This document shows, one piece after another, positions 18,280-55,145 of a DNA stretch of 64,000 nucleotides. A model generated the notes under the pieces. It did no database searches, was not told the origin of the DNA, and worked only from the letters and a program-made list of their open reading frames with translations. The DNA comes from a virus. Both the position numbers and the translations under genes were made by a program. The stretch lies in IMG/VR virus record IMGVR_UViG_3300025018_000121, positions 27,094-91,093 of that record, one strand, 5' to 3'. How positions within the stretch are numbered: position 1 is the first letter of the stretch; the number at the start of each line of letters is the position of its first letter.

Positions 18280-18476
18280 CATCGTTAGGTATGGTAATAG
18301 TATGTTCAATTTCTATAGCGCTTGTACTACTCGCATTTTTCATTGTTAATCGAAGAGAGAAACAACGCAAGCAATATTACAAAGTATGGATTGACCACAT
18401 GCGCAAATCAGGTACACATGAAGCAGAAATAATGAGGCTTACTGGTTTGTATTATCTCTCAGTAGAGGAAGACTAA
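18276..18476 (+). CDS. Small single-TM membrane protein
   Basis: N-terminal hydrophobic helix then basic tail. Confidence 0.6.
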   Translation: MTSLGMVIVCSISIALVLLAFFIVNRREKQRKQYYKVWIDHMRKSGTHEAEIMRLTGLYYLSVEED

Positions 18477-20014
18477 TGTCTACATCTAACCGGATATTTT
18501 TCAAGGAAAGGATTTATATTCCTGAAAAAATAGTGGACATGGATGAAATAGAAAAACGGTTTCACAGAACTGTATACAACGAAGAAAAATGTTTGAGCTG
18601 CGAGTTCTATGAAGACAGACACTGTGACGTGTGTGATGAATGTCCGGGCTTCATCGGTACGTTTAAAATGTACAAGGAAAAAGTTTCCGGTGGTAAAAAT
18701 TATATTGGAATTCCTTATGGTGCCAGAGATCAAATCAAGAAAGTAATTACACGGTCTGCAAAAGGAAAAGATTTGCGGGCCTGTCCGCCGTTTAAAACAA
18801 AGGGAATTAAATTTATTGCTAAGGAAAAGCCCTATCAAAGAAAAGCAAGAAAGAAAATGATCGAACGTGGATATGGTATTTTAAAAGCACCTCCACGTTC
18901 AGGCAAAACTGTAATGGCTACTTCAATTGTATGCAAATTACAAAGCAAGACAATTATTCTAGCTTCTCAGCGTGAGTGGCTTGTAGGTTTTTACGAAACC
19001 TTCTGTGGAAACAAATCCAAAAAAATTAAACCTTTCACAACAATACCTGATTTAGAATCATCAAATAAAAAGATTATTGGCTTTCCAAAAACTCTAAAAG
19101 AATATGAAAAATATGATATATGCCTAGTTACCTACCAATCTCTTAATTCCAGAGGCGGCAAGAGACTGCTTAAAAAAATCAAGGATATGTTTGGCGTACT
19201 TGTTCTTGATGAATGTCATGACGCAGGCGCACCTGTGCTTGCGCGTGTAGTGAACTCTTTTAATTGCAAATACCGTTTTGGTTTATCTGGTACTCCAGAA
19301 AGAAAGGACAAGAAAGACTTTGTTTTTGAATCTGTGTTTGGGGGTATAACGTACAACGCAAAAGTAAAAACACTTAAACCAAAAGTAACTTTCATTGAGA
19401 CACACACCAAATCAGATAAGCAATATTCTTTACCTATTCATGCAGTTAAGTTTCTAGAGCGTGATAAAAGACGTACCAAATTAATCGTTAAGCACATTGT
19501 TAGTGATGTTAAAAGAGGCCACCACGTAGTTGTTCCTGTTGCTCACGTTGCTTATATGAAGATGTTAGTGGAGGAAATAAATAAAAAAGCAGGAAAAGAA
19601 ATTGCTGTTGGTTTCTTTGGTGGACTATCTAAACCAAAGAAAGACCAGATTATTGCAGATGCTCAGAGTGGAAAAATAAAAGTTATTGTAGGCATTAGGA
19701 GAATGGTTCAGGTTGGTGTGAATATTCCACTATGGTCAGCTCTATATGAAATAAATCCGATATCAAATCCTCCAAAGATGAAACAAGAAACAGCACGAAT
19801 TCTAACTGACATACCCGGAAAACTAAGTCCAGTTATTAGACACTTCTTAGACGACGTAGGCTTTTCTAGAGGGTGTCTTAGAACATGTCTATTCAAAACA
19901 TATTTCCCAGAACGTTTTATTATTTCAGAAAAAGATAGGGGTTTGGCGCTTAAATATACATCAAAAGCTACCCTGAGCCATGATATAAGCTCTGCGGGCA
20001 TCAAGAAGTTTTAA
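18476..20014 (+). CDS. SF2 DExH helicase (UvsW/XPB-like)
   Basis: APPRSGKT, VTYQS, DECH, GLSGTPERKD, GVNIP, QETARI; N-terminal Cys cluster. Confidence 0.9.
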   Translation: MSTSNRIFFKERIYIPEKIVDMDEIEKRFHRTVYNEEKCLSCEFYEDRHCDVCDECPGFIGTFKMYKEKVSGGKNYIGIPYGARDQIKKVITRSAKGKDLRACPPFKTKGIKFIAKEKPYQRKARKKMIERGYGILKAPPRSGKTVMATSIVCKLQSKTIILASQREWLVGFYETFCGNKSKKIKPFTTIPDLESSNKKIIGFPKTLKEYEKYDICLVTYQSLNSRGGKRLLKKIKDMFGVLVLDECHDAGAPVLARVVNSFNCKYRFGLSGTPERKDKKDFVFESVFGGITYNAKVKTLKPKVTFIETHTKSDKQYSLPIHAVKFLERDKRRTKLIVKHIVSDVKRGHHVVVPVAHVAYMKMLVEEINKKAGKEIAVGFFGGLSKPKKDQIIADAQSGKIKVIVGIRRMVQVGVNIPLWSALYEINPISNPPKMKQETARILTDIPGKLSPVIRHFLDDVGFSRGCLRTCLFKTYFPERFIISEKDRGLALKYTSKATLSHDISSAGIKKF

Positions 20015-20837
20015 ACTTTTTTATTTTATCAAGTAGTTTTGATTTATTAATACTAGAATTCTTACTCTTTTTATTATTCTCATTTTGTGTTATCAGTCTT
20101 AGATTGCAAGGGTGCGCTACTATTTCTACAGGTACTGGATTTTTGTACTTAAAGAACCCGTCGTACTTTGAAAGTGCGTGGTCTATATGAAAATCTCTCG
20201 ATCTTTTATTGTCTTTGTCTATTATATTTTTATATTTTTTATAATTCCTCATAGTTTCGGCGTGTACTTGCTTACAGTACAATTTAAATTCGCTATACTG
20301 CCTTTCTTGAATACCCTTACTCTTTCTTTTAATTACACTGGCCCTTAATTTACTCTCACTAATACTTCTTATTCTCCAATTCTCCTTTATAGCCCAATTA
20401 CGCATGGCAGTTGAACTTATTCCGTGTAGTATAGCAATTTGAGTTATAGGCCACCCTTTTACCTCATAAAGTCTTTTATAATCGTTCAACTCACTTCGTA
20501 AAATCCATTTCTTTTTAGCTCTCAGTTTCCACTTATCTCTTTTGGCTGTATACAAAATATTTTCTACGGTAACTCCAAGTTCTTTAGCTATGTCTGACAT
20601 CTCTCTTTTACTTTTTTCATATTCTTTTTTCGCATACTTCATTTGCTCTATTGAAATTTTATAGTTCCCAGCCGGCCCGTATTTCCATTTATTTTTTATA
20701 CATAATTGTCTTATTGTTTCGCCTGAACATCCGTAGGCTTCCCCAATAGAATAAAGACGCTCTCCTTTTTCGGCCCTTTCTTTTATATCTTTCATCTTCT
20801 TAACTGTTAATATTTTTGAAAACTCCCGAGGCTTCAT
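20001..20837 (-). CDS. Free-standing HNH homing endonuclease with tandem HTH repeats, inverted relative to neighbours
   Basis: Three HTH-like repeats; C-terminal FHIDH...AHPCNLRLITQNENNKK; GGAG RBS. Confidence 0.8.
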   Translation of the reverse strand: MKPREFSKILTVKKMKDIKERAEKGERLYSIGEAYGCSGETIRQLCIKNKWKYGPAGNYKISIEQMKYAKKEYEKSKREMSDIAKELGVTVENILYTAKRDKWKLRAKKKWILRSELNDYKRLYEVKGWPITQIAILHGISSTAMRNWAIKENWRIRSISESKLRASVIKRKSKGIQERQYSEFKLYCKQVHAETMRNYKKYKNIIDKDNKRSRDFHIDHALSKYDGFFKYKNPVPVEIVAHPCNLRLITQNENNKKSKNSSINKSKLLDKIKKFKTS

Positions 20838-20860
20838 TTTTTATCTCCAAAGCGGTTTTA

Positions 20861-20870
20861 ATAAAATTAG
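20861..20870 (-). promoter_or_regulatory. CTAATTTwA late-promoter-like motif upstream of the HNH gene
   Basis: Related motif at 4120, 23585, 27256 and 35746 (+), upstream of packaging/virion genes. Confidence 0.5.
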
Positions 20871-20891
20871 ACAACTACCGAAGTTTGAACA

Positions 20892-20987
20892 AGACTCTCC
20901 CGTGAAGAAATGGCGAAGGCTGTAAAGTATACCAGTAAGAGAACAATTAACCATGACAAAAGTGGCAGTGGCATTCGACAGTTCTAA
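20892..20987 (+). pseudogene. Stranded second copy of the helicase 3' end (31 codons plus stop)
   Basis: RLSREEMAKAVKYTSKRTINHDKSGSGIRQF* aligns without gaps to the helicase end IISEKDRGLALKYTSKATLSHDISSAGIKKF* (14/31 identical). Confidence 0.85.
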
Positions 20988-20996
20988 GGAACAGTT

Positions 20997-21689
20997 ATGA
21001 ACAACACTTATAAAAGAAAAGATTTTAAAAAATCTGCACCAACAAAAAAGGGAGACTTTAACGTAAGTCTCCCAGATTCATCTTACGAACACAAATTACT
21101 AACCTCACACGGAGTAGCACGGCAGGTAATGACGTTCCCTTCTTTTTCGTTAGAGAATCATGTAGCAAACTTTGTATCTGAAGTGGACGGTTTAAAACCA
21201 AAAAGTGTTCCGAAACAAAAACAACTAGACGCAGTAAAGAAAGTATATGAGAACCCATTTAAAGCACCTTACGTTTTTTGTATTTCTGGTAATCCTAATG
21301 ACATGCGAGCTAAAATGCTGGCCGTTATGATTCTCAGTAGAGCAATACATTTATTCAGGTCACAAAAAGATTTAGACGAAAAAACGGTTAGGAAACTAAA
21401 GCACAAGTCTAGTCCTGTATTTCATAATGTAATGGGATGGTCAAAAAATCCGTTACTGGAAAGCAGTAATTCTCCTAGTCTTCTAGTTTTGTCTAATGTT
21501 CCAAAAGGCATGACTCAATACAAGCAAGAAAAACTAAGAGATATATTAGAGAAATACTCAGATGTTCCTAGAATTGTTGTGACTACTGGACATGACCCTG
21601 TTACTTTTTTTAACGGGTCTTTGTATATGTCTGTTAACTATGTCTGTTACCTGACAGATAAGATCGTGAAAAAATCACACGAAATTTAA
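20997..21689 (+). CDS. Hypothetical protein, possible degenerate helicase loader
   Basis: Directly upstream of DnaB; strand-helix pattern like a P-loop fold but no intact Walker A. Confidence 0.45.
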   Translation: MNNTYKRKDFKKSAPTKKGDFNVSLPDSSYEHKLLTSHGVARQVMTFPSFSLENHVANFVSEVDGLKPKSVPKQKQLDAVKKVYENPFKAPYVFCISGNPNDMRAKMLAVMILSRAIHLFRSQKDLDEKTVRKLKHKSSPVFHNVMGWSKNPLLESSNSPSLLVLSNVPKGMTQYKQEKLRDILEKYSDVPRIVVTTGHDPVTFFNGSLYMSVNYVCYLTDKIVKKSHEI

Positions 21690-21699
21690 GAGAGGGAAT

Positions 21700-23013
21700 A
21701 TGAAACTGTTTTCTAACCGTTTGGAAATGCAAGCCATCTACAATATCTGCGAAGGTAAAACTAAATACAGTAGTGTCATGCTTGCTTCGTTGAGCGAAGA
21801 CCATTTTCATTCTGAATACTCTAAAGAGATTATAGGCAGAATTAAACGTGTAACTCAGATTAATGGAGAGATACCTAACATAAAGGAAATCAGCGTAGAC
21901 CCTGTAATTTCAGAAGACTCCCGCAAAGCTATTTCCAAGTTTGAAGGGGACATAGTTGACTCCCGTCGAAAGTCTTTGAAAATAGTTAATAATCTTCACA
22001 AATACTATCAGATGCGAAAGCTTTATTTCCTGTCTGAAAAAATCAACGAAGCCCTTTTAAGAGATAAAGTAGATGTAGAAAAACTGGTAAACCAAACCGC
22101 ACAAGAAATATCTAAGGTATCTATAAAAATTGATTCGCAACAGCAGATGTTTAACCTTGGGGGTAACGGTACTTTTTCTAAGGTACTAAAGAAACTTACC
22201 AATGATGAAAAACCCGAAATGATTCCTACAGGGTTTTCAGATTTTGACAGAACTAACGGTGGTTTGTTTTATGGTTCTATGGTTTTGATTGGTGGTACAA
22301 CAGGTGGCGGCAAATCCAGTCTTGCTATTCAACTTTTGAAAAACATGGCGGAAAATGCGGAGAGTTGCGTATACGTTCCTCTGGAAATGACAGAGGTAGA
22401 AAGCGGCGCTCGATTAATGTCCAACCTATCAGGAATTAGTCTACTAAAGATACTTCAAAAGAAACTTACCCGTGCGGAGAAAAAGAAAGTAATTAGTGAA
22501 GGAAAAAAGTTTCATGCCAAGTTGAAGAAACAAGGCAACATGTATTCTATTATGTCACCTGAAGAAGACATGACAGCGGAGGAGATTTTGTTAATGCTTC
22601 AGCCTTACGGATTCCGCGTAATTCTGATCGACTATATTTCTCTGTTAAAAGGCGTAGATGGCGAAGAATCTTGGAAGCAACTTTCAAATGTTGCGCGTAT
22701 GTGTAAGATTTACGCGAAGACTCACAACATTATTGTTATTCTTTTGGTACAGATTAATGATGAAGGCTATATTCGTTATTCAAAAGGCGTAGAAGAACAC
22801 GCAAACAATGCTTGGTATTTTGTAGCGAATAAAGAAACCCGTGAAGCTGGCGTTTTAAATATTACTCAGAAGAAAGCACGTAACCAAGCCATGTTTGATT
22901 TTCAACTGGCTTTTGAAGCTGACGTTATGCGGATATACGATATGGATAAAAGCACGGCAAGCAGTAATGAAAGCGGAGACACTGAAGAACTAAGTGATAT
23001 GAGTGGTGACTAA
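21700..23013 (+). CDS. dnaB: Replicative DnaB-like helicase
   Basis: IPTGFSDFD, GGTTGGGKS, LEM, ILIDYISLL, LLVQIN, KARN. Confidence 0.9.
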   Translation: MKLFSNRLEMQAIYNICEGKTKYSSVMLASLSEDHFHSEYSKEIIGRIKRVTQINGEIPNIKEISVDPVISEDSRKAISKFEGDIVDSRRKSLKIVNNLHKYYQMRKLYFLSEKINEALLRDKVDVEKLVNQTAQEISKVSIKIDSQQQMFNLGGNGTFSKVLKKLTNDEKPEMIPTGFSDFDRTNGGLFYGSMVLIGGTTGGGKSSLAIQLLKNMAENAESCVYVPLEMTEVESGARLMSNLSGISLLKILQKKLTRAEKKKVISEGKKFHAKLKKQGNMYSIMSPEEDMTAEEILLMLQPYGFRVILIDYISLLKGVDGEESWKQLSNVARMCKIYAKTHNIIVILLVQINDEGYIRYSKGVEEHANNAWYFVANKETREAGVLNITQKKARNQAMFDFQLAFEADVMRIYDMDKSTASSNESGDTEELSDMSGD

Positions 23014-23658
23014 ATGAAAGTTTTAAACGGCCCCGGTAATCCGATAACAGGCTCTACTTTAGCTTCGGACTTAGAAGATGAACAACTTCCGTTTGAAATT
23101 CTAGAAAGAATGAAAGAGATCGACGAAAACTTTGAGACACAAATCTTTGTTAAGAAAAGAAAGAAAGAGACAAAACAAATAAAAAAGAGTAATAAATTTC
23201 TGAATATTAAAGGAGAGTTGCCTTTCTGTATTCACTTACCAGAAAAAACTATTTCCATGTCTGGTAGCAAAAAAGAATGGGAGCAGCATAAAAAACAAGT
23301 ATCTAAGGAAATTGACGCAAAAACAACTGACATTATATCCGTAAATAAAAAATCTAAACATGCCTTTATCAATAAACTAGATCAGCACCAGAGAGACTTT
23401 GAAACTTTCTTTCTACATGAATTATCGCCCTTAGAGTCGGCGTTTGAACCTTCCTTAGATAACGTAAAACAAATACTAGAACTAATTACTAAATCAGAAG
23501 TAGACACTGGGGATTTGGGTACATTTAGAGCAATGCTGCGCGACGTTTTATATATTAAAGCTCTTGAATTCTTTGCAGATAAAGCTAATTTAAGTGAAAG
23601 TCAGCAGGCCATATTAAACGAGAAATACTTCAGGCCAAAGGAATTCAAAAAAGAGTAA
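23014..23658 (+). CDS. Hypothetical protein with MKVLN leader
   Basis: 214-aa ORF immediately upstream of terminase. Confidence 0.6.
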   Translation: MKVLNGPGNPITGSTLASDLEDEQLPFEILERMKEIDENFETQIFVKKRKKETKQIKKSNKFLNIKGELPFCIHLPEKTISMSGSKKEWEQHKKQVSKEIDAKTTDIISVNKKSKHAFINKLDQHQRDFETFFLHELSPLESAFEPSLDNVKQILELITKSEVDTGDLGTFRAMLRDVLYIKALEFFADKANLSESQQAILNEKYFRPKEFKKE

Positions 23659-23664
23659 AAGCGT

Positions 23665-26600
23665 ATGAAAACCTCAGATGTTAAATTTAGTAAAAGAAAA
23701 GCATTAGCAAAAGGAAAGAACTGTTTAAATTGTGCTTCCTTTTCCAAGTGCAGTAAAAGTAAAAAGTCAGGGTCTTATGTTTGCGAATCCTACAAGAAAA
23801 TAAAAGTAAAGGGAGAAAATGCTTTTTCTCTAGAGGATATGTTTGCTGATACTAATTTCCACGTAGCAGATGACTACTCAGACTTCGTTCCCATTGAAGA
23901 CGAACACGACTTTAAAAATATGGAAATTAATGTCGTTAAAATGATGGACGAAATCTTCGAGAGCGAAAATCCCTACCCCCGTGACTTAAAAATTGATGAT
24001 CGTGACTTACCGGAATTTAAAAATATTTATGAATACTTCTTTGACCCTGTTTATGGTCTAGCAAAAAATATGCAGCCTTTTTCTAGGCAGCTATGGGCTG
24101 GAGTAAAACTCTTTGGTGATTACTGCCCTATATGCTCAGACCACAAATTTATGGAGGACATTGAAAATTGCCCTATTTCTATGAGAGCAATTGATTTTCC
24201 AGAACATGTAGTATTTATGGAAAATGGAAAATGCCCTAAATGCAAAGGACATAAGTTAGACTTTGTTAAAAAAGGTTACATGAATTTTTATAGAGACTTT
24301 GCAGCTTGCTTAGGACAACGTTCCGGTAAGTCTGTGACTTTTTCTATGTTTAGTGGATATCATCACCACAAGTTTTTAAAAATGGGAAAGCCTGCTGAAT
24401 TATTAACAGGTCTGCCTAACGTAACTCTAACCGCAACATATACGGCAACAGATTTTAAAACTGCTATGGAAACCTTGTGGCAGCCTTTTGTAGATATTAT
24501 TGACGAATCGCCGTGGTTTAAAGCTTATCACTCTATGCTAGACCACTATGGTAAAAAATACGGCGAAGAAATTTATCGTTTTAAAGAAAGTTTCCTACAT
24601 TATAAACACACTAAAATGTTTACGTCGGCTGCTTCACCTAACAAAAGAACAATGCGTGGTCGTTGTTTAACAGGTGATACTCTTGTTAACACGTCACAAG
24701 GCACTATGCACTTTTCTGAATTTATTAAAGAAATGGACTACAATAAAACCGATCTACAGATTATGTCGCACCTTGGTGGGCGTACTGTAAGCCATACCTA
24801 CAAGTCAGAAGAAACAGAAACCTATAAATTAAGAACCCGAAATGGTTTTTCTGTAGAAGGTACTCCAGAGCATCCAATGCTTGTTTTAAATGAAGACCTT
24901 TCTATGGATTGGGTTACTTTAGATAAATTAAAAGTAGGGCAATGGATAGTATCAAAAACAAATAAAGAGAAAACCCTGTACGGAAATGCGAAGCTGTCTA
25001 AAACAGATGCTGAATTACTCGGATACTTTGTAGCTAACGGTTATAGGAATGAAGTTTCGACAAACGATCAAGACGTAGCCAACCGCTTAATTTATCTAGG
25101 TAAAAAGATAACTGGAGTAATTCCAACCCATACTAAAAATAATTCTTCTATTCGCGCAGACTCTTACAGGTTTATCTACAAAAACGGGGAGTCTAATTTC
25201 GTAAGAGACTACTTAAATCCTTTAGGGTATGACTTTAAAAATTCAAAAGATAAAATGATTCCTGCTATTGTCAGGATGGCCCCTAGAGAAGTTATGCACG
25301 AATTTTTGGAAGCTTATTTTAAATGTGATAGTGGTATTAATGGAGGCTCAAAAAATTCCCCTTCAGAAATAGAGGTGGGTTCCGCTAGTAAAAAACTGGC
25401 TAAACAACTACACGTTATTTTATTTAAAAACTACGGTATACTTGGAAGACTGACCAAGCACACTTTCTATGATAAACTGAACAAAACTACCGGAAACTTT
25501 AATGCAAAAAGAAACCATTGGACTATTACGATAACTGGTTACGACGCGAACCTATTTTTGCAGACTTTCAAGAAAGCAAAAGTTCAAAAATACAAAGATA
25601 GAATAAAAGACGTACCTAAAGGCTTTATGTCCGACAGAAGAAGTGTTCCTTATGTAAGAAAATTTCTTTGGGACTTATACGAAAACTCCCGACTGGTAGA
25701 TACATTAGGTAAAAGACTCAGAAGACTTATTGCAGAAAATGGCAGTGTAGTCTTAAACAATATCAAGCCCAAGTGTTTTGATAGGTTACGTTCTAGTAGA
25801 GATATTTACGAAGAAACGCCAGAATACTTAATTTACGGAGACGATTGGGATATTTTAATACCAAGAATTAAAGACCTTAATTTAAGCAAGGGTACTGCAC
25901 TTAAAGACTTTTTATCTTTTGAGGGGCACTTTGAACAAGTAGTTGAGATTAAAAAATCTTCTAAAAAGAAAACTGTATACGACGTTACCGTACCGGATGG
26001 CCATGCTTTTATTGCAAATTGTCTGGTTTCTCACAATACCCGTTTTGAATATGCAATCGACGAATTAGGCTGGTTTGATGCTTCAAGTGAATCAAAAGAT
26101 AAAGTACGTATTTCCGCAGATGAAATTTACGGCGCACTAGACCGTTCAATGAAAACAGTTATGTCTGCATCTAAAAGATTATTTCTACAAGGTTATAGTG
26201 GTACAACACCGGGAATGTCTTTTAATATTTCTTCGCCTTCTGCCTACGACGATAAAATTATGTCTATGTGCAGAATCCATAAAGACTCTAGAGTAGTTTT
26301 AGCGCTTCACTTACCCACTTGGAAATACAATCCTAAAGAGCCTAAAGAAAACTTCAGAAAAGAATACATGGAAGACCCTATAAAAGCTGAACGTGACTTT
26401 GGTGCTAATCCTCCTATGGCAGCCTCGCCATTCTTTGAAAACATTAACGCCATAGTTCCAAACTTCACAGACAAAGCAAATTTCGCAACTTACGAATATT
26501 CATTAAAGAAAGTAAATAACACACTTTATAAATCTGCTAAATTGAAGTTGAGTGTACGCGGCGATATTTACCCCTCAGTCCTCGCACTAGATGCTGGTTT

Positions 26601-27252
26601 TTCTAATAACTCTTTTGCTCTTGCTGTCGGCCACCGTAGAGAAAAAGAAACTATATTTACTACCCTTATTGAAATCATGCCAGATAAGGGTAAAAATGTT
26701 TTGAACTACAATTCTATCTTTGAAGAAGTAGTAGTCCCTTTAGTAGACTCATTAAATGTTCAATTTATTTGTGCTGACCGTTGGAACTCTTTATTCCTTT
26801 TACATAAATTAGAAGAAGATAAAAAAATAAAGCAAATGCAGTATAGCGTTAAATACGCAGACTTCAATTTATTTAAATCATACTCTGAGGGTAATAGAAT
26901 TCTATTTCCCAAAATGGAAATGCGAGCAGAAAAAGCATTAACTATTCCTAGCACAGAATACATAGAGAAGTTTACGTACAAACCCTGTGCCCATTTATTC
27001 TCTCAGATATTTACTGTTGAAGACAAAGGCCGCACTGTTGATAAAGGTAAAAACAGAACTGACGATTTATTTAGAGCTGTGGTATTAGCCTCTAGGTTCT
27101 TACTTGATGATTCATGGGTAGCTGAGAATCTTAATTTAACCAAAAGAAAAAACAGCAATATGGGAATCGTTGCACTGGCTAATGGTGCAAGCCCTACAGG
27201 CACTTTAGCTACGGCAACAGGTAAAGGAATTATTTCGTCAGGAGGTCATTAA
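23665..27252 (+). CDS. terL: Terminase large subunit containing an intein
   Basis: Walker A GQRSGKS, Walker B AIDE after the intein, ISSP, nuclease LALDAG, ADRWNS, TDDL; upstream of portal. Confidence 0.88.
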   Translation: MKTSDVKFSKRKALAKGKNCLNCASFSKCSKSKKSGSYVCESYKKIKVKGENAFSLEDMFADTNFHVADDYSDFVPIEDEHDFKNMEINVVKMMDEIFESENPYPRDLKIDDRDLPEFKNIYEYFFDPVYGLAKNMQPFSRQLWAGVKLFGDYCPICSDHKFMEDIENCPISMRAIDFPEHVVFMENGKCPKCKGHKLDFVKKGYMNFYRDFAACLGQRSGKSVTFSMFSGYHHHKFLKMGKPAELLTGLPNVTLTATYTATDFKTAMETLWQPFVDIIDESPWFKAYHSMLDHYGKKYGEEIYRFKESFLHYKHTKMFTSAASPNKRTMRGRCLTGDTLVNTSQGTMHFSEFIKEMDYNKTDLQIMSHLGGRTVSHTYKSEETETYKLRTRNGFSVEGTPEHPMLVLNEDLSMDWVTLDKLKVGQWIVSKTNKEKTLYGNAKLSKTDAELLGYFVANGYRNEVSTNDQDVANRLIYLGKKITGVIPTHTKNNSSIRADSYRFIYKNGESNFVRDYLNPLGYDFKNSKDKMIPAIVRMAPREVMHEFLEAYFKCDSGINGGSKNSPSEIEVGSASKKLAKQLHVILFKNYGILGRLTKHTFYDKLNKTTGNFNAKRNHWTITITGYDANLFLQTFKKAKVQKYKDRIKDVPKGFMSDRRSVPYVRKFLWDLYENSRLVDTLGKRLRRLIAENGSVVLNNIKPKCFDRLRSSRDIYEETPEYLIYGDDWDILIPRIKDLNLSKGTALKDFLSFEGHFEQVVEIKKSSKKKTVYDVTVPDGHAFIANCLVSHNTRFEYAIDELGWFDASSESKDKVRISADEIYGALDRSMKTVMSASKRLFLQGYSGTTPGMSFNISSPSAYDDKIMSMCRIHKDSRVVLALHLPTWKYNPKEPKENFRKEYMEDPIKAERDFGANPPMAASPFFENINAIVPNFTDKANFATYEYSLKKVNNTLYKSAKLKLSVRGDIYPSVLALDAGFSNNSFALAVGHRREKETIFTTLIEIMPDKGKNVLNYNSIFEEVVVPLVDSLNVQFICADRWNSLFLLHKLEEDKKIKQMQYSVKYADFNLFKSYSEGNRILFPKMEMRAEKALTIPSTEYIEKFTYKPCAHLFSQIFTVEDKGRTVDKGKNRTDDLFRAVVLASRFLLDDSWVAENLNLTKRKNSNMGIVALANGASPTGTLATATGKGIISSGGH
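24664..26037 (+). mobile_element. Intein (458 aa) with LAGLIDADG-type endonuclease domain
   Basis: MRGR|CLTGDT, GTPEHP block B, LLGYFVANG and FLEAYFKCDS, VYDVTV...SHN|T. Confidence 0.95.
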
Positions 27253-46400: not shown

Positions 46401-46433
46401 CAACAGCAATTTTAAATGTGAATTTCAGGCAAT

Positions 46434-46466: not shown

Positions 46467-46473
46467 GTTTTAT

Positions 46474-46851: not shown

Positions 46852-46970
46852 TTTTTATCTCTCCAAAATTTGATTGAGTTATTTGTTTACGGTTTGTAGA
46901 AAAGGGAACTGCTTTATTTGTGTTGTATTAACCCCTCCATACTAATGTCGTTTCTCGCTACCACTATGGG

Positions 46971-47249: not shown

Positions 47250-47254
47250 TTAGC

Positions 47255-47710: not shown

Positions 47711-47721
47711 GATGTTTCTCC

Positions 47722-48024
47722 TTAGATTCCAATAGTGAGTGTTTTGAGTTTGATATTAAAAGTTCTGTCTTGTTGTTCGTAAGACTTAATAGCTTTTTTG
47801 TTGATTACGTAAATACGAAATTCCCAACGGTTCGGTTTGTAATTTTGGGTATTTTCTCTATCAATAATCCGACGACGCTTCTCGGCGTGATAAAGAACAA
47901 CAAGTTCGCTGTCTTTTACTTCATCGTTTATTTCTTTTTTGATACTTTCAACTACTTGCATACCTTCGTTTTTCGTAGCTACAGTAGTTTCAAGATAAGG
48001 CCGAACAATTACAGTAGTGTACAT
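47722..48024 (-). CDS. Hypothetical protein
   Basis: AAGGA RBS; TGTAAAGTA motif upstream. Confidence 0.6.
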   Translation of the reverse strand: MYTTVIVRPYLETTVATKNEGMQVVESIKKEINDEVKDSELVVLYHAEKRRRIIDRENTQNYKPNRWEFRIYVINKKAIKSYEQQDRTFNIKLKTLTIGI

Positions 48025-48069
48025 TTTAGTTTTCCTTTAGTGTGTTGTTGCTCTCTACTTTACAGATTG

Positions 48070-48960: not shown

Positions 48961-48975
48961 TTTTATCTCCTCAAT

Positions 48976-49548
48976 TTACTCTGCTGTGTTTGGATATGCA
49001 TCATCCTCGAAGAAAGGAACAGCAACATCTTCAATCATTTCGTTGATTTTAACAATAGAATTTTTACAATTAATTATATTTTCTTGTAAGTTAGAGAAAA
49101 GTTTTCTTTGTTCAGTTAACAACATCTTGATTGTAGAAATAACATCCGGCAGTAATCTAGCTTCCGCTCCAGTTTCTTCTTGTTCTTTCTCTCCAGAAAG
49201 TTGACAAGCCAGACTCTTAGAATTAGCACATAGATTTTCTAATTCTTCGTTCATGTATGAAAGATACTCTCTTAGGTCTACTAAAGAGTTTGGTACAGAA
49301 GTAAAATCGAATACGTCTTCCGGTTCGCTTTCACCATCAGATACGCTCCCTAAAAACCTTATAACTTCTTTTTCAAAGTTTCTACAGTCTCTTGTGAAAG
49401 TATGAAAGGTTAATTCTTCTTTTTCTTTTTCTTTTTCGGCAGGGTGGCATCTGAGCGCCTTACATTCCTGTAGTGTTTCTAGTATAGCAATCATATTTCT
49501 CTGTACAGAACTTTTTACCTTTTCATTAATTACGTCAATGTAGCTCAC
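48976..49548 (-). CDS. Acidic coiled-coil hypothetical protein
   Basis: ORF track, GGAG RBS. Confidence 0.6.
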   Translation of the reverse strand: MSYIDVINEKVKSSVQRNMIAILETLQECKALRCHPAEKEKEKEELTFHTFTRDCRNFEKEVIRFLGSVSDGESEPEDVFDFTSVPNSLVDLREYLSYMNEELENLCANSKSLACQLSGEKEQEETGAEARLLPDVISTIKMLLTEQRKLFSNLQENIINCKNSIVKINEMIEDVAVPFFEDDAYPNTAE

Positions 49549-50177
49549 TGTTCTCTCCTGTTTGCTTTTTGGTTTAGACTTGCTAATGAAGGAATGACTG
49601 CTGGCTTAGGTTCCTCTTCGTAAAAAACTTCTAAATTATCAAAAGTTGCTAAAGTATCTTTCAAAAGGTTTTGTAGTTTTACTAATTTTTCCTCAAGCTT
49701 ATAACAAGTTATATTAAATGCTTTAAATTTTGACTCTATACTATGAATCAAAGTGGTTTCAGCGTCCATTGATTTCCCTTTTTCTTCTTCGTAGTCGTCT
49801 TTTTCTACCCCTCCGTATTCCAAAGTAGATATTAGGTCTTGTGTTCTTTCAATTACCTTTTTTAGAATTTTATTAACAGTGTCAAAGTATTCGAGTGTAT
49901 ATAACAAAGACTCTTTTTCTACAGGCAAGTTCTCAATATCAGATAAGTCAGCCCTTTTGTAGTCACTGTTAGGATTTATAAAATTGAGTACGTACTCTTC
50001 CATGTTATTAAATGTAGAAACGAATTTTGGTAAAGAACTCGTTTCTACATTTTTGTCATCTTCTCCTTCACTGTCCCCACCTATTGAAAATATAATTGAT
50101 ACTTGAGTCTCCAATCTCAAAAACGTAAGATGTAGAAACTTTTCAACTCTTTCTGATACTTTCGTTTTCAAAGTCAT
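49545..50177 (-). CDS. Acidic coiled-coil hypothetical protein
   Basis: ORF track, GGAG RBS. Confidence 0.6.
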   Translation of the reverse strand: MTLKTKVSERVEKFLHLTFLRLETQVSIIFSIGGDSEGEDDKNVETSSLPKFVSTFNNMEEYVLNFINPNSDYKRADLSDIENLPVEKESLLYTLEYFDTVNKILKKVIERTQDLISTLEYGGVEKDDYEEEKGKSMDAETTLIHSIESKFKAFNITCYKLEEKLVKLQNLLKDTLATFDNLEVFYEEEPKPAVIPSLASLNQKANRREQ

Positions 50178-50410
50178 GCTTGTACTCCGTTAAGTTTAGG
50201 TGCTTTAGGTTTTAATGTTCGTGGCCATTTTAAATAATTTTTATACAGATAGAATCCTTTATATTCTTGAACAGGAAGCTGATTGTCTTCTGGTAAAGGT
50301 TTTTGGTTAAACCAATAACCTCTCCCTTCACAGCACTTTGGATACGCACCATCTTCCCTCTGTTTCATTTCGTGTCCACACTCAGCACAATACATTTTTT
50401 CATCCTTCAT
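50174..50410 (-). CDS. Small Cys-containing hypothetical protein
   Basis: CAEC...CC. Confidence 0.55.
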   Translation of the reverse strand: MKDEKMYCAECGHEMKQREDGAYPKCCEGRGYWFNQKPLPEDNQLPVQEYKGFYLYKNYLKWPRTLKPKAPKLNGVQA

Positions 50411-50895
50411 CGCATTACTCTTTGTATTGTGGTTTTAGTATCTACAAACTTTTCTAAGTCTAAAAAAGTTCTACTAAATAGAAGGTTTCTTGTGTCGAGT
50501 TCTTTTCCTTTATAAAGAGTATAGTTCTTTCTATAGTATTTGAAAGGACTCTCGCTTTGTTTAAACGCACCTCTGTACTTTTCCAGAAACTGTTTTTTAA
50601 CATCTTCTGAGCACATTGTTTTTAACAATATAATATTTTCTTTGTCTGAACACGGCATAAATAAATATTCAGCATCTTCTTGATTGTAGTAGTCTCTGCC
50701 TGTACAACCCGACGGATATACATAGTGCATACCAGAAACAAGATAAATAGAACTGATAGGGTGCTTTTTGCCGCAAGTGCATTTAATTAGTTTTCTACCT
50801 CTTAGTGTGTCTAGCATTTGCTTTAATAGAACCTGTTCCTCCTTTTTCTGCTCTATCAATTTTTCACATTTCTTTATAGTTCTGTCTAAGCTCAT
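50407..50895 (-). CDS. Hypothetical protein
   Basis: ORF track, GGAG RBS. Confidence 0.6.
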   Translation of the reverse strand: MSLDRTIKKCEKLIEQKKEEQVLLKQMLDTLRGRKLIKCTCGKKHPISSIYLVSGMHYVYPSGCTGRDYYNQEDAEYLFMPCSDKENIILLKTMCSEDVKKQFLEKYRGAFKQSESPFKYYRKNYTLYKGKELDTRNLLFSRTFLDLEKFVDTKTTIQRVMR

Positions 50896-50896
50896 A

Positions 50897-52114
50897 TCAA
50901 GTCTCCAACAGGTTTCTGATAGTTTCTTTTACATCAGGAGTTTTCAGCATTATAGTTTGTACAGTAGCTGGGATGAAAAGTTTCTCACTCTCAAAGTCAA
51001 CTTCACATTCGTAGAAGAACTCCAGAGCTTTTTTAACCACTGTGCTATCTACGTAACCAATTTCTTTGTTGAAGTCTACACGTCCGTCTCTTATTAAAGC
51101 ATCGTCTAATTTTTCAGGATGATTAGTTGTCATAATAACAACCAATCCATCAGGTGTAAAAGGCCCGTCTAAACAATTCAATAAAGTAGACAAGCTCATT
51201 TCTTGTTTTTCTTTTGGTTGTGCAACTTCGTTCTTACCATCTGTTTCTAAAGTCAAAGACTTCTCTTCCCTTTTACTTACAACGTTGAAAGAATCTACGT
51301 CTTCTATCAAAAGGATGCCTGTGTTTGTGTGCATGTAACTGAAAGCTTTAAGTAAGCTACTGTCATTTTGGATTGACGAAAGGCTCGCGGCATACAATTT
51401 TCTATCGAGCATTGAGGCTAAGTATAAAGCCAAGGAACTCTTTCCTGTACCCGGCGGGCCTTTGAATAAATAAACTCTTTTGTAAGGAATTCCTTTTTGT
51501 CTGTACCAGTCTTTCCTTTCTACAAAGTTTTTCAAATCTGCTTCTATTTCTTCTAGCTCCCCTGCATTAAAGAATAAACTCTCTCTCGCTCTACGTTCTT
51601 TTTCAGAATACTTACTCCACCACCCGTCCCAAATAAAAACAGGTGTTGTATCAGTATTTTTTGTTTTAATTGCTTCTTTAATAATACCCCGCATTAAGGC
51701 TGTTGAACGCCCTAAAGTTCTTAACTTAATTGTTTCTTCTGATTTTTTGCCTGCTGTTTCATTAAGGCTTCGAGAGACTAGAATAGGTTTTTTGTTGTGC
51801 CAAACAATATATGTTCCATAACCTATTCCATATTTAGGTTCTCCGTCTTCAACTGTATCACAAACCTTTACGTCTCGAATTTGATCCCTGATATTTTTAT
51901 TCATCCATTCTTCAAGATAGTAAAAAACGTCTGAAGTGTCTCTTACAGTCATGGAATAAGAAAACACTCTTTCTAATTTTCCATAAACAGTTCTAGGAAT
52001 ACCTTTAGCCAAGTACAAAGCAGACGCAAATATACTTGCACCCACTAAGCCTGAAAACATTTCGTTTGTTTGAAACTGAGTAAGAATCCAAGAATATATA
52101 ATATCAAACATCAC
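50897..52114 (-). CDS. BCS1-like AAA+ ATPase with N-terminal membrane anchor
   Basis: GIPYKR, GPPGTGKS, IEDVD, LSTLLNCLDG, TTNHPEKLDDALIRDGRVD. Confidence 0.9.
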   Translation of the reverse strand: MMFDIIYSWILTQFQTNEMFSGLVGASIFASALYLAKGIPRTVYGKLERVFSYSMTVRDTSDVFYYLEEWMNKNIRDQIRDVKVCDTVEDGEPKYGIGYGTYIVWHNKKPILVSRSLNETAGKKSEETIKLRTLGRSTALMRGIIKEAIKTKNTDTTPVFIWDGWWSKYSEKERRARESLFFNAGELEEIEADLKNFVERKDWYRQKGIPYKRVYLFKGPPGTGKSSLALYLASMLDRKLYAASLSSIQNDSSLLKAFSYMHTNTGILLIEDVDSFNVVSKREEKSLTLETDGKNEVAQPKEKQEMSLSTLLNCLDGPFTPDGLVVIMTTNHPEKLDDALIRDGRVDFNKEIGYVDSTVVKKALEFFYECEVDFESEKLFIPATVQTIMLKTPDVKETIRNLLET

Positions 52115-52124
52115 TCTCTTCCCT

Positions 52125-52301
52125 TCATTCGTAGCCTACAAAAATTCTTTTGTTGCACTTCGTACAACATTCGTAAATACGAACTGCGTGAAAGGTTTCA
52201 GTAGTTCCGTCTAGTTTATGTATAGTTACAGGCCCGTATCCTTCTTGTTTTTCAAATTCATGATTACAAAAGTGTTTTTTAAACTTTTCTACAATCCACA
52301 T
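52125..52301 (-). CDS. Small Zn-binding protein, 58 aa (not in the ORF track)
   Basis: MWIVEKFKKHFCNHEF...CTKCNK; fills the intergenic gap. Confidence 0.6.
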   Translation of the reverse strand: MWIVEKFKKHFCNHEFEKQEGYGPVTIHKLDGTTETFHAVRIYECCTKCNKRIFVGYE

Positions 52302-52311
52302 AAAAGTTACC

Positions 52312-52740
52312 TTAAAGTTTTTTAAGAATAGCTCTTGTAATGTCTCTTTCCTTATCTACTGTGGTTAGTCTCTCTCTTACTAAATTAGATTGTACGAATC
52401 CAATCCAACGTTGGCACTTAGCATTATCCATGTTGCCAAACCGAATTTGGTTACACATCCAGTAGGTGTGTTCCAAAGAATTTGGCTTCTCAGGTGTCCT
52501 TTCAGGAACAACGTTTATTTTATCTAACATACTTTCATAACGAGCACACAGAAACATTAACAGCGACTCGCTCTGTTTATATTCTGAAATCTTTCTAGTT
52601 GGAATATTTCCATTCTCAAGAGTATGTTTTAAGGTTTTTATCATTTCGGTTTTAGCACTAGGCAGATATTGAGTTTCATCTTCAAGTAATTCTACAATAA
52701 GTTGTACGTGTGCCCTATGCAACATAAATTCATTTAACAT
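52312..52740 (-). CDS. Hypothetical protein
   Basis: C-terminal H..WM...K.QRWIGFVQ motif. Confidence 0.6.
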   Translation of the reverse strand: MLNEFMLHRAHVQLIVELLEDETQYLPSAKTEMIKTLKHTLENGNIPTRKISEYKQSESLLMFLCARYESMLDKINVVPERTPEKPNSLEHTYWMCNQIRFGNMDNAKCQRWIGFVQSNLVRERLTTVDKERDITRAILKKL

Positions 52741-52741
52741 G

Positions 52742-53389
52742 TTATACCCTCACGTATTTACGAATCTCAAAGTTTTTAGGTTCGTTTTCTTGGGCCAGCT
52801 CTAAGCAATGATCTAAAGTAAACCCAGAAGGTTGAGTGTACAGAGCTACCTCATAATAATTGTAGTGATGTATTCTCTTAACAAGAGGCGAGAAAAAAGA
52901 AACTTTTTCTTTAACTTCGAGTACATTTTCAACAGGTGCTAAGAACACTTTAAGACTATCAAACTTCATTACAGTTACCCAAACTTCCGAGCACAAATCA
53001 ATGTAGTCTTTGTAAATTGATTCTCCACCAATAAACCAAACTGTATCAAGACTTTCAATGTCGCCTTTACTAGTTAAAAGTGCGATACCAATTAGAAGTC
53101 CCAAGTCCGCTTTAACTTTATCAGAATTTTTAAATCCGTTAGTGAATACAAGATTTTTATGTTCGTTGTCTACATTGTATTTTTCAGGTTGACGGGTTAT
53201 GACTATATTGAATCTATTAGGTAGTGGCTTGCTACCCATAGACTCAAATGTTTTTCTACCCATTACTACGATACAACCCGAAGTTTTTTCTTTAAAGTGT
53301 TTCATATCAGTAGAACACTTCCACGGAATCTGGTTATCTATTCCAATAACGCCTTGTAAGTCACAAGCTACGATCATTTTAAAATTCAT
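52742..53389 (-). CDS. folA: Dihydrofolate reductase
   Basis: IVA...VIG..NQIPW...DMKHFK..T, VMGRKTFES, PLPNR, IGG..IY. Confidence 0.95.
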   Translation of the reverse strand: MNFKMIVACDLQGVIGIDNQIPWKCSTDMKHFKEKTSGCIVVMGRKTFESMGSKPLPNRFNIVITRQPEKYNVDNEHKNLVFTNGFKNSDKVKADLGLLIGIALLTSKGDIESLDTVWFIGGESIYKDYIDLCSEVWVTVMKFDSLKVFLAPVENVLEVKEKVSFFSPLVKRIHHYNYYEVALYTQPSGFTLDHCLELAQENEPKNFEIRKYVRV

Positions 53390-53631
53390 TTCTGTTTCTC
53401 CAATAACCTTCTTGCAAATCCCGGCCTGTTTGCCGTTTCATAAAGGTGACGTGCGATTACAATACCAAAAACTTTATGGCCAATATTAGAAATGTACTTT
53501 CTTTTATTCTTAGACATTCTTGGTCTTCTTGAACTTACTTGAAGACTTGTTACGTACTCATACTCGGCAACCACTATCTTTTCTTTATCGTTTAGTTTCA
53601 GCTCTGGATAATAATCTTTAAGAATTTCCAT
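53386..53631 (-). CDS. Hypothetical protein
   Basis: ORF track, operon packing. Confidence 0.55.
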   Translation of the reverse strand: MEILKDYYPELKLNDKEKIVVAEYEYVTSLQVSSRRPRMSKNKRKYISNIGHKVFGIVIARHLYETANRPGFARRLLEKQK

Positions 53632-53639
53632 GTCTATTT

Positions 53640-54134
53640 TTATCTCCGTCTACGTGACTTAATTCTGTCCTGTGATTGTTTACGTTCTTCTAGTATTCTA
53701 AAACAATATTCTTCATCACTCTCAGTTACTTTTTCAGTAGTCTTTTCGGTATGCTCATAAGTCATACGCAAGAAAGTTTTATTAGTGCTCTGGTCGTAGA
53801 CAATGCTTGTTTTAAATTTATCAGGCAACTTTTCAAAATCCTTTTTGGTATTATCCTTACATATTTCAATTTCCTTTGTTTCCCTTACAACTTTAATTTT
53901 TTCTACACTATTTAATCTAGGCCAGTTTTTAAACTCAACTATGAAATTGTTATCTTTGGGGCCAAGAAGCTTTTCTTTATTAAGTTCGAGTTTCAATTCT
54001 CTAAAAGATTGTGCTTGCATAAAAGTTTCGTGGTTAACAACCCGTTTGTCAAAACTGTAACGCCTTTCTATTTCTTTCAAAATGTTAGTAACCGTTCTAC
54101 TCGCATAAATTACTTTAGTGTCTGAGTTAATCAT
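53640..54134 (-). CDS. Hypothetical protein
   Basis: ORF track, operon packing. Confidence 0.6.
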   Translation of the reverse strand: MINSDTKVIYASRTVTNILKEIERRYSFDKRVVNHETFMQAQSFRELKLELNKEKLLGPKDNNFIVEFKNWPRLNSVEKIKVVRETKEIEICKDNTKKDFEKLPDKFKTSIVYDQSTNKTFLRMTYEHTEKTTEKVTESDEEYCFRILEERKQSQDRIKSRRRR

Positions 54135-54535
54135 TTGCTATTATCCTTTATTTCTTTCCATTGACCTTCAAAAACTAAAGAGCCTTCATTTGTGTACAGA
54201 CTATCAACTTGAAGTATCTTAATGGGAACTGTAGTGTTCCGGTATTGAAAAACTTCCTCAATAAGTTGATCCTCACTAGTAGCAAAGGCCAATGAGTTTC
54301 CGTACCTAATTACATTGAAAAGAAACCTCATTAAACTTTCTAATTTTTCAGCGTTATAGTTTTTGAAGTTATTCTGTACATACTCTTTAACAGCGTTTCG
54401 GTGGCCTTCCGTTAAATTAAACATGCCTAGACTTTCTATAAAATGGATTAGGGAATTCAAGTCACTCCAGTAAGTTTTAGCCATACAAAAACAACTGCGA
54501 GTATTAAGATCACAAAGATAAGAATTACTAGACAT
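54131..54535 (-). CDS. Hypothetical protein
   Basis: GAGG RBS. Confidence 0.6.
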   Translation of the reverse strand: MSSNSYLCDLNTRSCFCMAKTYWSDLNSLIHFIESLGMFNLTEGHRNAVKEYVQNNFKNYNAEKLESLMRFLFNVIRYGNSLAFATSEDQLIEEVFQYRNTTVPIKILQVDSLYTNEGSLVFEGQWKEIKDNSK

Positions 54536-54551
54536 TTTTCTTTCCTCAATT

Positions 54552-54592
54552 TGGCGCGCCCAGCAGGACTCGAACCTGCAACCTACGGCTTA
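54552..54592 (-). pseudogene. 3' half of a split canonical tRNA-Arg gene
   Basis: TAA-GCCGT-AGGTT-GCAGG-TTCGAGT-CCTGC-TGGGCGC-G-CCA; acceptor strand pairs perfectly with 55139-55145. Confidence 0.9.
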
Positions 54593-55015
54593 TCTATTTA
54601 GTTGTATCTTCCTACTGGCAATACCATTACACCTTCTACTACACTTAGGTACTGTCCCTTTCTTTATTTGATTAACATACTTTATAAATTTTTTATTACA
54701 CACAGGACAAATTAACTTGGCCTGTTTTCTCTTAGGTCTTTCTAAAAGCGTCTTGGCTAAATGTTCTTTCTTAGAAAGAACTTGCAAGTTCTTTGACCTG
54801 TCATTGGTTTTGTCTCCGTCTATATGGTCAATCTCATATTTTGACGGTATTATCTTTCCTGTTTTTACTGAGAGTTTGTACCTAGCGTATGATATAGTTG
54901 TTCTATCTTTATTAGAATTGAATAAATCAACTCTTTTTCTTCCATCTTTTTTGCTTTCTCTTAGATACCCAGATTTCCATTTCTCTTTAAATGGACTTTT
55001 TAGTTTTATTTTCAC
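54590..55015 (-). CDS. HNH homing endonuclease with C-terminal Zn finger, inserted in the tRNA-Arg gene
   Basis: EIDHIDGDKTND...NLQVLS..EH; CPVC...CSRRC; GAGG RBS before GTG 55015. Confidence 0.88.
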   Translation of the reverse strand: MKIKLKSPFKEKWKSGYLRESKKDGRKRVDLFNSNKDRTTISYARYKLSVKTGKIIPSKYEIDHIDGDKTNDRSKNLQVLSKKEHLAKTLLERPKRKQAKLICPVCNKKFIKYVNQIKKGTVPKCSRRCNGIASRKIQLNR

Positions 55016-55030
55016 AGGCACCTCTATAAA

Positions 55031-55109
55031 TGGCGGGAGTGGTGGGACTCGAACCCACATTGATCCTATTACGGGACTACAGCTTAGAAGGCTGTTCCGA
55101 TACACCCCC
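55031..55109 (-). tRNA. Non-canonical D-armless tRNA-Arg(UCU)-like gene with long variable arm
   Basis: GGGGGTG/CACTCCC acceptor, TA, TCGGA in place of the D arm, ACAGC-CTTCTAA-GCTGT, 20-nt variable region, GTGGG-TTCGAGT-CCCAC, G-CCA. Confidence 0.8.
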
Positions 55110-55115
55110 TTTTAA

Positions 55116-55145
55116 CGTTGCTCTATCCAATTGAGCTATGGGCGC
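55116..55145 (-). pseudogene. 5' half of the split canonical tRNA-Arg gene
   Basis: GCGCCCA-TA-GCTC-AATTGGATA-GAGC-A-ACG; TGTAAAGTA motif 7 nt upstream. Confidence 0.9.

Follow-up and report, generated by a model that had tools for sequence, protein, structure and literature searches.

How does the gene of a homing endonuclease come to sit inside a gene that is useful to its phage when it is part of neither an intron nor an intein? Two loci in a 64-kilobase (kb) stretch of phage DNA raise this question (hereafter the window; positions 27,094 to 91,093 of the 91-kb linear IMG/VR record IMGVR_UViG_3300025018_000121). At one, a superfamily 2 (SF2) helicase gene is followed by an endonuclease gene and then by a second version of its own 3′ end. 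At the other, an insertion interrupts the anticodon loop of a canonical tRNA-Arg(UCU) gene, and between the halves lie a complete tRNA(UCU) without a cloverleaf and an HNH_3 endonuclease gene. We consider it probable that both loci are free-standing homing-endonuclease cassettes that carry a pre-diverged copy of the gene part they displace. The record has an estimated completeness of 37% (CheckV) and a GC content of 36.5%, and the phages nearest to it in their replication genes are jumbo phages (such as phiRSL1, BcepSaruman, and Erwinia and Dickeya giants).

The helicase gene (18476..20014, plus strand; Pfam ResIII, SNF2, DEAD and Helicase_C, with homologs in jumbo phages) now appears to be a hybrid of a conserved core and a replacement C-terminal tail. 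Its last 31 codons (19919..20014, plus strand), the start of which is the putative left boundary of the cassette, are in frame and presumably incoming. They are followed by a free-standing gene for an endonuclease of 278 amino acids (aa) on the minus strand (20001..20837), which overlaps the helicase stop by 14 nucleotides (nt) and encodes three helix-turn-helix (HTH)-like repeats and a C-terminal HNH-like domain with a DH..N..N..K motif. Next comes an AT-rich spacer of 54 nt (20838..20891, GC 0.30) that carries the ribosome-binding site (RBS) of the endonuclease gene (GGAG, minus strand) and ends at an in-frame TGA preceding an orphan helicase tail (20892..20987, plus strand). This orphan, presumably native, is an open frame in DNA without a listed open reading frame (ORF); a stop precedes it and its only ATG is internal. 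It holds the native position ahead of p230 (20997..21689, plus strand; phrog_20094), the conserved downstream gene that is the native neighbour of the helicase stop, and its TAA overlaps a TAAGGA RBS 9 nt ahead of the p230 ATG at 20997.

The two tails align without gaps, with 14 of 31 residues identical, equal length and a stop at the same position. Their local alignment score is 79, compared with 38.4 ± 5.0 for shuffled tails (z = 8.2), and when all six frames of the 91-kb genome were searched, the best non-self match of the helicase tail was the orphan (79; next 41). When each of 106 genome ORFs was treated as an insert, the HNH-like gene ranked top in flank-to-flank similarity (79; next 59; median 38). 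The 31-codon tail is a genuine family feature, since its KY(T/A)S..GI..F-stop motif also ends the homologs P0002 and P0003. At the DNA level the tails are 52% identical, with matches at 20 first, 20 second and 10 third codon positions, each out of 32. Because first and second positions are conserved while the third is at chance, both tails must have diverged as coding sequence in separate lineages, and a young local duplication in decay would not account for them. The orphan keeps the native p230 junction and is marginally closer than the proximal copy to its nearest homologs P0002 and P0003 (scores of 53 versus 40 and 40 versus 35); for these reasons we read it as presumably the native helicase end, and the in-frame copy as presumably the incoming one.

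To place this arrangement in context we used 61 helicase loci of related jumbo phages, obtained by a profile scan of IMG/VR, in which the order helicase, p230, DnaB is kept; these loci and the window were each searched with their own helicase tail. In most of the 61 the helicase leads into p230 uninterrupted. A downstream copy of the tail was found in four loci only, namely L029 (z = 55, ~83 aa), L023 (z = 35, ~46 aa), L014 (z = 17.5, ~46 aa) and the window (z = 8.2). It is precisely in these four that an endonuclease gene separates the copies, and each of the four endonuclease inserts found at the helicase 3′ end comes with a tail duplication. The inserts represent three nuclease families: the HNH-like gene of the window, two ORFs of the DUF7487/'homing endonuclease' phrog on the opposite strand in L029, and related GIY-YIG genes on the same strand in L023 and L014. 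In all four cases the proximal tail is complete, in frame and terminated at the homologous position. Other inserted genes (0.9-2.3 kb) occupy the same junction in at least eight distinct loci, none of them with a tail duplication; Pfam identified one of four such inserts as an AAA ATPase and found no match for the other three. The orphan copies in L023 and L029 hold the same position relative to p230, while in L014 an 87-aa ORF and others intervene. The spacing from stop to p230 is 9 nt in the window and in L023 and an overlap in L029, and the same junction is found in uninterrupted relatives. L023 and L014 share 67% nt identity, yet their orphan copies start at a homologous helicase position, as a site-specific enzyme would be expected to produce. 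The orphan tails outside the window sit in small ORFs with a start of their own (L029:7528-7860, 110 aa; L023:6507-6674, 55 aa; L014:6728-6922, 64 aa) and might still be translated as stubs.

One of these cases can be compared with an empty site. Closely related to L029 (90-95% nt identity) are loci L049, L050 and L061, which carry an intein in the helicase P-loop and have no insert at the 3′ end; the flanks of L029 are 90-97% identical to those of L049 and L061. A three-way alignment revealed that the in-frame copy of L029 is native as far as the 12-mer CATCCNAAAATA and unrelated beyond it, while the orphan copy shows the reverse, being diverged ahead of this 12-mer and from there identical to L061 through the stop and into p230. 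The insertion is thereby precise: ~2.3 kb (~L029:5447-7779), lying ~25 codons ahead of the stop and bounded by the recoded tail on one side and by a foreign upstream piece on the opposite side, such that the sequence around the junction survives in each copy as a single native half. Such junctions would be expected if a pre-formed cassette had been copied into a break there, and they also explain how the carrier could escape cutting. We infer that the junction marks the cleavage site, and the DUF7487 enzyme of L029 is expected to cut the L049/L061-type helicase 3′ end near CATCCTAAAATA|AG.

The second locus, on the minus strand, follows a related design in an RNA gene. The stranded 5′ part of the canonical tRNA-Arg(UCU) (55114..55145, tRNA positions 1-31) comprises the acceptor strand, the D-arm and the 5′ strand of the anticodon stem; its D-arm, AATTGGATAGAGC, is typical of tRNA-Arg(UCU) genes in phages P19 and 10AMN. 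Directly after it (55114) comes AAAA, and then the replacement tRNA(UCU) with a rewired core and an encoded CCA (55031..55109; Rfam tRNA 42.1 bits, cut-off 29). This is followed by the HNH_3 endonuclease gene (54590..55015; Pfam HNH_3, phrog_14913), which encodes 141 aa from a GTG start with an AGAGG RBS 5 nt upstream. The stranded 3′ part of the canonical gene (54552..54592, positions 36-76 with CCA) completes the locus, and the three bases of the HNH_3 stop codon, TAA, double as positions 36-38 of the old anticodon loop. The two old parts pair with each other, 7 of 7 in the acceptor strands, and loop positions 32-35 are absent from them. The replacement has a perfect 5-bp anticodon stem, the loop CUUCUAA (anticodon UCU), a normal T-arm and discriminator G; the two tRNAs differ in architecture and their acceptor stems are unrelated. 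AGA makes up 42% of the arginine codons and encodes five of eight invariant helicase arginines, and because of this usage we take a tRNA-Arg(UCU) to be useful to the phage and AGA to mean arginine. A recoding of AGA to serine by the odd tRNA was considered and rejected, as AGA stands at invariant arginine positions. Likewise, relaxed ARAGORN offered the inner tRNA as tRNA-Gly(CCC), which was rejected for its poor anticodon stem against the perfect 5-bp stem and consensus loop for UCU. The only window tRNA called by default ARAGORN is an ordinary tRNA-Leu(UAA) (59483-59569, minus strand). Searches of IMG/VR for an empty tRNA site, with the exact 30-mer of the 5′ half and with a pattern specific to the rewired tRNA of the window, gave no matches, and the small flanking proteins (54131-54535 and 55169-55543) had no homolog in five related phage records.

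Is the replacement a degenerate tRNA or a structure in its own right? In its core, a 3-bp stem encloses the anticodon arm and is followed by a D-loop-like GUAAUAGGA stretch. The Rfam RF00005 alignment of 55031-55109 is above the gathering cut-off, with the D-arm positions deleted and 17 nt inserted after the anticodon arm, and the RNA has no four-arm cloverleaf with a D-arm between acceptor and anticodon arms. A pattern built from this tRNA and its look-alikes found 110 matches in IMG/VR, of which default ARAGORN calls three; they represent 81 distinct sequences, and the 7-bp acceptor stem is perfect in 76 of these. In an alignment of 75 sequences, 97.9% of cells are paired in four helices, with a covariation of 0.91 compared with 0.23 for shuffled and at most 0.18 for slid controls. 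The 3-bp stem around the anticodon arm is one of these four covarying helices; after it comes the D-loop-like GUAAUUGGA stretch, and a conventional D-arm is missing. Because the search pattern itself specified the anticodon loop, the GUAAUUGGA stretch and the T-loop, these three are conserved by construction. The covariation argues that the replacement tRNA is rewired, not degenerate. Family members lie at L004:1927-2007, L005:1941-2020, L073:605-687, L003 ~1345-1425, L076 ~340-425, L069 ~600-685 and L006 ~1292-1375, as well as in L084-L193, and the RNA is unannotated in phages PA11, Ty, 1-6af, Bas93, B9, AM24, KissB, Aszh-1 and Vibrio 1.084.O. In Kuravirus, a single locus behind an HNH gene holds either the rewired form (1-6af, Bas93) or a canonical tRNA-Arg(UCU) (CHD5UKE1, O18-011, YF01) between flanks that are 89-93% identical. 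The rewired RNA thus behaves as an allele of tRNA-Arg(UCU), and it is predicted to work like one. Our literature search found no paper on the rewired tRNA.

Some members of the family show further peculiarities. In Bas93 (L078:925-1040) the rewired tRNA tips a longer hairpin, its acceptor stem being lengthened by a 13-nt inverted repeat (AAGAGCTTCTAGC / GCTAGAAGCTCTT), and its 3′ end reads GCUA rather than CCA. A gene for a 251-aa DUF559/MTES_1575-like nuclease (L188:5909-6664) lies beside the rewired tRNA in L188 and L097 and is absent from L121; the difference between L188 and L121 (~1440-1465) is bounded by a short ATAAATAAT repeat.

The HNH_3 enzyme is linked to tRNA(UCU) genes well beyond the window. 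The 141-aa protein matches PF13392 HNH_3 (E=1.4e-10, 41.1 bits, cut-off 24.8; 42.4 bits in the genome-wide run), carries a zinc (Zn) ribbon in addition, and matches phrog_14913 with E=6e-50. Homologs with 37-58% identity were found in 55 phage records, and the one in PA11 is annotated as similar to T5 TflI. Of the 19 phage loci that we examined, 15 have the HNH_3 homolog within ~260 nt of a tRNA(UCU) gene. A rewired tRNA(UCU) is within ~200 nt in 11 of the 19, representing at least seven phage groups, and stands upstream of HNH_3 in the window, AM24, Bestia, KissB, Aszh-1, B9 and Vibrio 1.084.O and downstream in PA11, Ty, 1-6af and Bas93. Canonical tRNA-Arg(UCU) genes adjoin HNH_3 in four loci (three Kuravirus phages and 10AMN), and the remaining HNH_3 genes are found amid other tRNA genes. 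The tRNA-then-HNH pair of B9 is intergenic and has no tRNA halves; therefore the pair exists as a unit outside a target. Stranded 5′ parts of canonical tRNA-Arg genes recur: broken at positions 31-34 upstream of HNH and rewired tRNA in PA11 (L004:1390-1420) and L177 (11385-11410), and immediately upstream of the rewired tRNA in the L097/L121/L147/L188 lineage (L121:1280-1325). No 3′ part was seen with any of these 5′ parts. A swap between two Kuravirus loci (L005:1762-2031 and L079:762-1124) starts inside the HNH gene, after its first ~270 nt, and the C-terminal (zinc-ribbon) part of the enzyme changes together with the tRNA allele. One could go further and suppose that the HNH_3 family (TflI relatives) specifically cuts canonical tRNA-Arg(UCU) genes near the anticodon loop, and that the rewired tRNA is an uncuttable allele maintained, and perhaps arisen, in this way. 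We regard this extension as doubtful, but if true, the pressure of a selfish nuclease would have produced a new tRNA architecture that spread through many phages.

The 278-aa protein of the helicase locus is matched by no Pfam HNH model. Its C-terminal domain is common to 650 relatives, whose N-terminal parts (HTH, NUMOD3, CapR, DUF7487) are the modular DNA-binding units typical of homing endonucleases, and residues D219, H220, N245, N254 and K257 are invariant in 28 relatives. An AlphaFold2 (AF2) model (pLDDT 94) has beta-beta-alpha elements at the motif; a single-sequence AF2 model was poor (pLDDT 45). The top rows of a Foldseek search with the model were nearly all HNH nucleases, as weak matches (E>=0.4), and VIA-align likewise gave weak similarity to the HNH enzymes of Gme (Z 5.0, root-mean-square deviation (rmsd) 5.0, 72 aligned) and GVE2 (Z 4.6, rmsd 3.4, 74 aligned). 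Sequence searches of the PDB were uninformative, and a word-based homolog search returned the query alone.

The conventional solution to the same problem is present in the window, as the earlier note on this DNA had pointed out. The terminase large subunit gene (23665..27252, plus strand, 1195 aa) contains an intein at residues ~348-791 with a LAGLIDADG domain; the assignment is borne out by Intein_splicing (67.4 bits, cut-off 35.8) and LAGLIDADG_3 (29.8 bits) matches, and the exteins match large subunit phrog_17415 with E=1e-179. The helicase family itself is a hotspot for such elements: a P-loop intein occurs in L049 (2168-5089) and in protein P0006, and L053:1688-4843 and L066:1820-4840 have split inteins at the DExH box, the halves of which flank an inverted endonuclease gene of the DUF7487 type. 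One helicase family thus shows three solutions, namely an intein, a split intein with an endonuclease gene, and a cassette with a spare part.

Taken together, these observations suggest the following mechanism. Each cassette would have entered a useful gene at, or a few bases from, the cutting site of its enzyme. The helicase cassette (~19919-20891) would have supplied 31 recoded codons and a stop, then the inverted HNH-like gene, leaving the native 31 codons untranslated in place. The tRNA cassette (~54593-55113) would have landed in the anticodon loop of the canonical tRNA-Arg(UCU) and brought a whole non-cloverleaf isoacceptor along with the HNH gene. Since the uninterrupted target would then be gone from both copies, each being either a single native half or an RNA gene of altered structure, immunity of the carrier genome to cutting is to be expected. 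Uninterrupted alleles of co-infecting relatives would be cut and repaired from the carrier, and cassette and spare part copied together. Such a cassette was most plausibly first created by one-sided or illegitimate double-strand-break repair from a diverged donor in which the endonuclease gene lay beside its own resistant allele. Cleavage specificity, immunity and active homing are predicted for both enzymes. The earlier note had ascribed one logic to two HNH genes, in which insertion inside a useful gene leaves a diverged replacement on one side and the orphaned original on the other. The anatomy of duplication and replacement was confirmed, with the amendments that the tRNA original is stranded on both sides and that the helicase-associated enzyme is without a Pfam HNH match. 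Its suggestion that a recoded spare part takes the place of splicing gained support from three further independent helicase cases, the filled and empty sites of L029 and its relatives, and the association of HNH_3 with tRNA(UCU).

Several results weigh against this interpretation. Flank duplication above background was found in none of 62 other members of the 278-aa enzyme's family, in a screen of +/-450 nt that would miss multi-ORF cassettes or more distant copies. Because of this, the spare-part design is an outcome of where a cassette lands and no trait of the enzyme family. Two other endonuclease-like genes of the genome, a small classical HNH gene in the window (PF01844; 3921-4238, plus strand) and a DUF7487/treble-clef gene outside it (genome 11856-12896; L195:895-1935), are intergenic and without flank duplication. 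At the one junction compared, that of the helicase, duplications accompany 4 of 4 endonuclease inserts and 0 of at least 8 other inserts. The 278-aa enzyme is weakly assigned as HNH-like, by its motif and the weak fold similarity of its model. Megablast against phage records found no close relative of the window, nor did IMG/VR and JGI metagenome contigs yield one when scanned with the helicase protein, and the best relatives in a word-based protein search reached only 55-60%; lacking a close relative, the cassette boundaries in the window and the assignment of native and incoming tails are based on position and a small score difference. At the tRNA locus, PA11 has a 5′ but no 3′ remnant and the order HNH-then-tRNA, unlike the window, and therefore the cassette is not one fixed unit. 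Moreover, HNH_3 lies within 1.6 kb of only 2 of 80 rewired tRNA genes, and any of nine endonuclease queries near 8 of 80 (a lower bound). Because the rewired tRNA is mostly without a nearby endonuclease gene of the kinds queried, homing is at most one route of its spread. Viewed from the rewired tRNA, its link to endonuclease genes is weak.

These points bear on an alternative in which the duplications are scars of recombination, by-products of illegitimate or mosaic exchange whose boundaries are marked by endonuclease genes, the spare part not being co-mobilised with them. Nuclease genes are known at the boundaries of phage genetic exchange (PMC10448857), and one-sided illegitimate repair yields junction anomalies (PMC2988022). 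The variable gene order (tRNA-then-HNH in the window, B9 and AM24; HNH-then-tRNA in PA11 and Kuravirus) and the absence of duplication in the 62 family members would also fit such scars. We nevertheless consider them an unlikely explanation, given that both junctions in L029 fall at the same 12-mer, as expected of a pre-formed cassette, that the proximal copy is complete and in frame with a homologous stop in all four cases, and that duplication distinguishes endonuclease inserts from other inserts at one and the same junction.

Much less probable still is a tandem duplication that arose locally at the gene end or tRNA, with an endonuclease gene later inserted between copies that diverged where they stood. 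It would yield the same gene order, with copies on the same strand and in register. However, the window tails are conserved at first and second codon positions but match only at chance level at the third (10/32), the orphan has kept an open frame although it is untranslated, the orphan tail of L029 is identical to the empty-site allele of L061 while its in-frame tail is foreign, and the two tRNAs differ in architecture and have unrelated acceptor stems. For the tRNA locus one may also think of an intron-containing tRNA-Arg gene, in which the HNH gene belongs to a self-splicing intron of 0.5 kb and the tRNA halves are united in the transcript. The insert shares its place in the anticodon loop with the group I introns of bacterial tRNAs, and HNH genes occur in phage introns. 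But 54400-55300 yielded no intron family at E<=10, the halves lack positions 32-35 and with them two bases of the anticodon, such that joining them could not restore UCU, and the insert holds a complete tRNA with its own CCA. Splicing can be set aside because no intron family matched and the halves cannot rebuild the anticodon, and we rate an intron as the most improbable of these explanations. We therefore retain the cassette carrying a pre-diverged spare part as the probable explanation of both loci.

If this is correct, homing endonucleases have, in addition to introns and inteins, a third means of occupying essential phage genes that the phage survives, namely to carry a spare part, and this amounts to a natural 'cut and rescue' drive. 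It would account for annotation debris beside endonuclease genes, such as orphan gene ends, tRNA halves and 'hypothetical' mini-ORFs, and would offer a route for swapping protein termini and whole tRNA genes between distant phages. The link to an endonuclease also gives a testable idea of why the rewired tRNA-Arg exists. Ready-made test pairs are at hand in the L029-type and L049-type helicase alleles, and in the rewired and canonical tRNA-Arg genes behind allelic HNH genes of Kuravirus.

How do these loci relate to known systems? Engineered 'cleave-and-rescue' or 'home-and-rescue' drives combine a nuclease against a needed gene with a recoded, cleavage-resistant rescue copy; being synthetic, RNA-guided and built in insects, they resemble the window in function only. 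Integrative elements restore tRNA ends at att sites. In Caldiarchaeum subterraneum a tRNA gene is disrupted and a stranded tRNA fragment lies beside a mobile insert (PMC3293823). As in the window, a 5′ tRNA fragment stands beside the insert and a working tRNA gene lies next after the insert; these elements differ in using a recombinase or integrase and a near-identical tRNA end, whereas the cassette of the window has no recombinase, a break in the anticodon loop and a structurally different isoacceptor.

Closer in the enzymes involved is the intronless homing of T4-type phages, in which SegB (in the tRNA cluster), SegF, SegG and MobE cause neighbouring genes to be co-inherited, including the T4 tRNA region (PMC2988022; PMC2330249). 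One-sided illegitimate break repair during T4 homing has been demonstrated (PMC2988022). The Seg and Mob systems share with our loci a free-standing endonuclease gene beside its target, co-inheritance of flanking markers and a resistant carrier allele. They differ in that the gene is intergenic and the recipient allele is replaced by gene conversion, and neither a stranded original nor a duplicated part is described for them. Free-standing endonuclease genes also lie inside conserved coding regions, with no intron or intein, in the split genes formed by mobE in Aeh1 nrdA, mobA in T4 gene 60/39 and seg in gene 43 of Aeromonas phage 25 (PMC2988022). There both pieces are used as protein subunits, while in the window one piece is replaced and the old one discarded. 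In fractured genes, a free-standing endonuclease gene lies between the halves of a split intein (PMC2677866), the layout seen in L053 and L066 of the same helicase family, and function is restored by protein trans-splicing instead of a spare part.

While our literature search, the coverage of which was incomplete, found no phage paper on a stranded original with a recoded replacement, the closest parallel is found in fungal mitochondria. There, mORF 'gene hybrids' have been described in atp6 of Allomyces macrogynus (1994), in atp6, atp9, cox2 and nad3 of Glomus sp. (2013), in atp9 of Rhizopus oryzae and in cox2 of Mortierella verticillata (PMC3630166). As at our helicase loci, an endonuclease ORF lies in the 3′ part of the gene, a foreign C-terminus continues the reading frame and the native C*-terminus is left behind downstream of the insert. 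As in L029, the stranded C*-terminus is nearest to the allele of close relatives, and filled and empty alleles occur in close relatives. The phage cases differ in their host, a virulent-type jumbo phage rather than mitochondrial DNA, in their enzymes (HNH-like, GIY-YIG and DUF7487), and in that two of the four helicase-associated enzymes are encoded on the opposite strand and not fused in frame. The earlier note had proposed a new class of cassette, a claim that must be given up in view of this shared architecture: the phage loci are the counterpart of the mitochondrial gene hybrids. The tRNA cassette departs from these in replacing a whole RNA gene instead of a protein tail, and this replacement of an entire tRNA by a rewired isoacceptor is a new variant.

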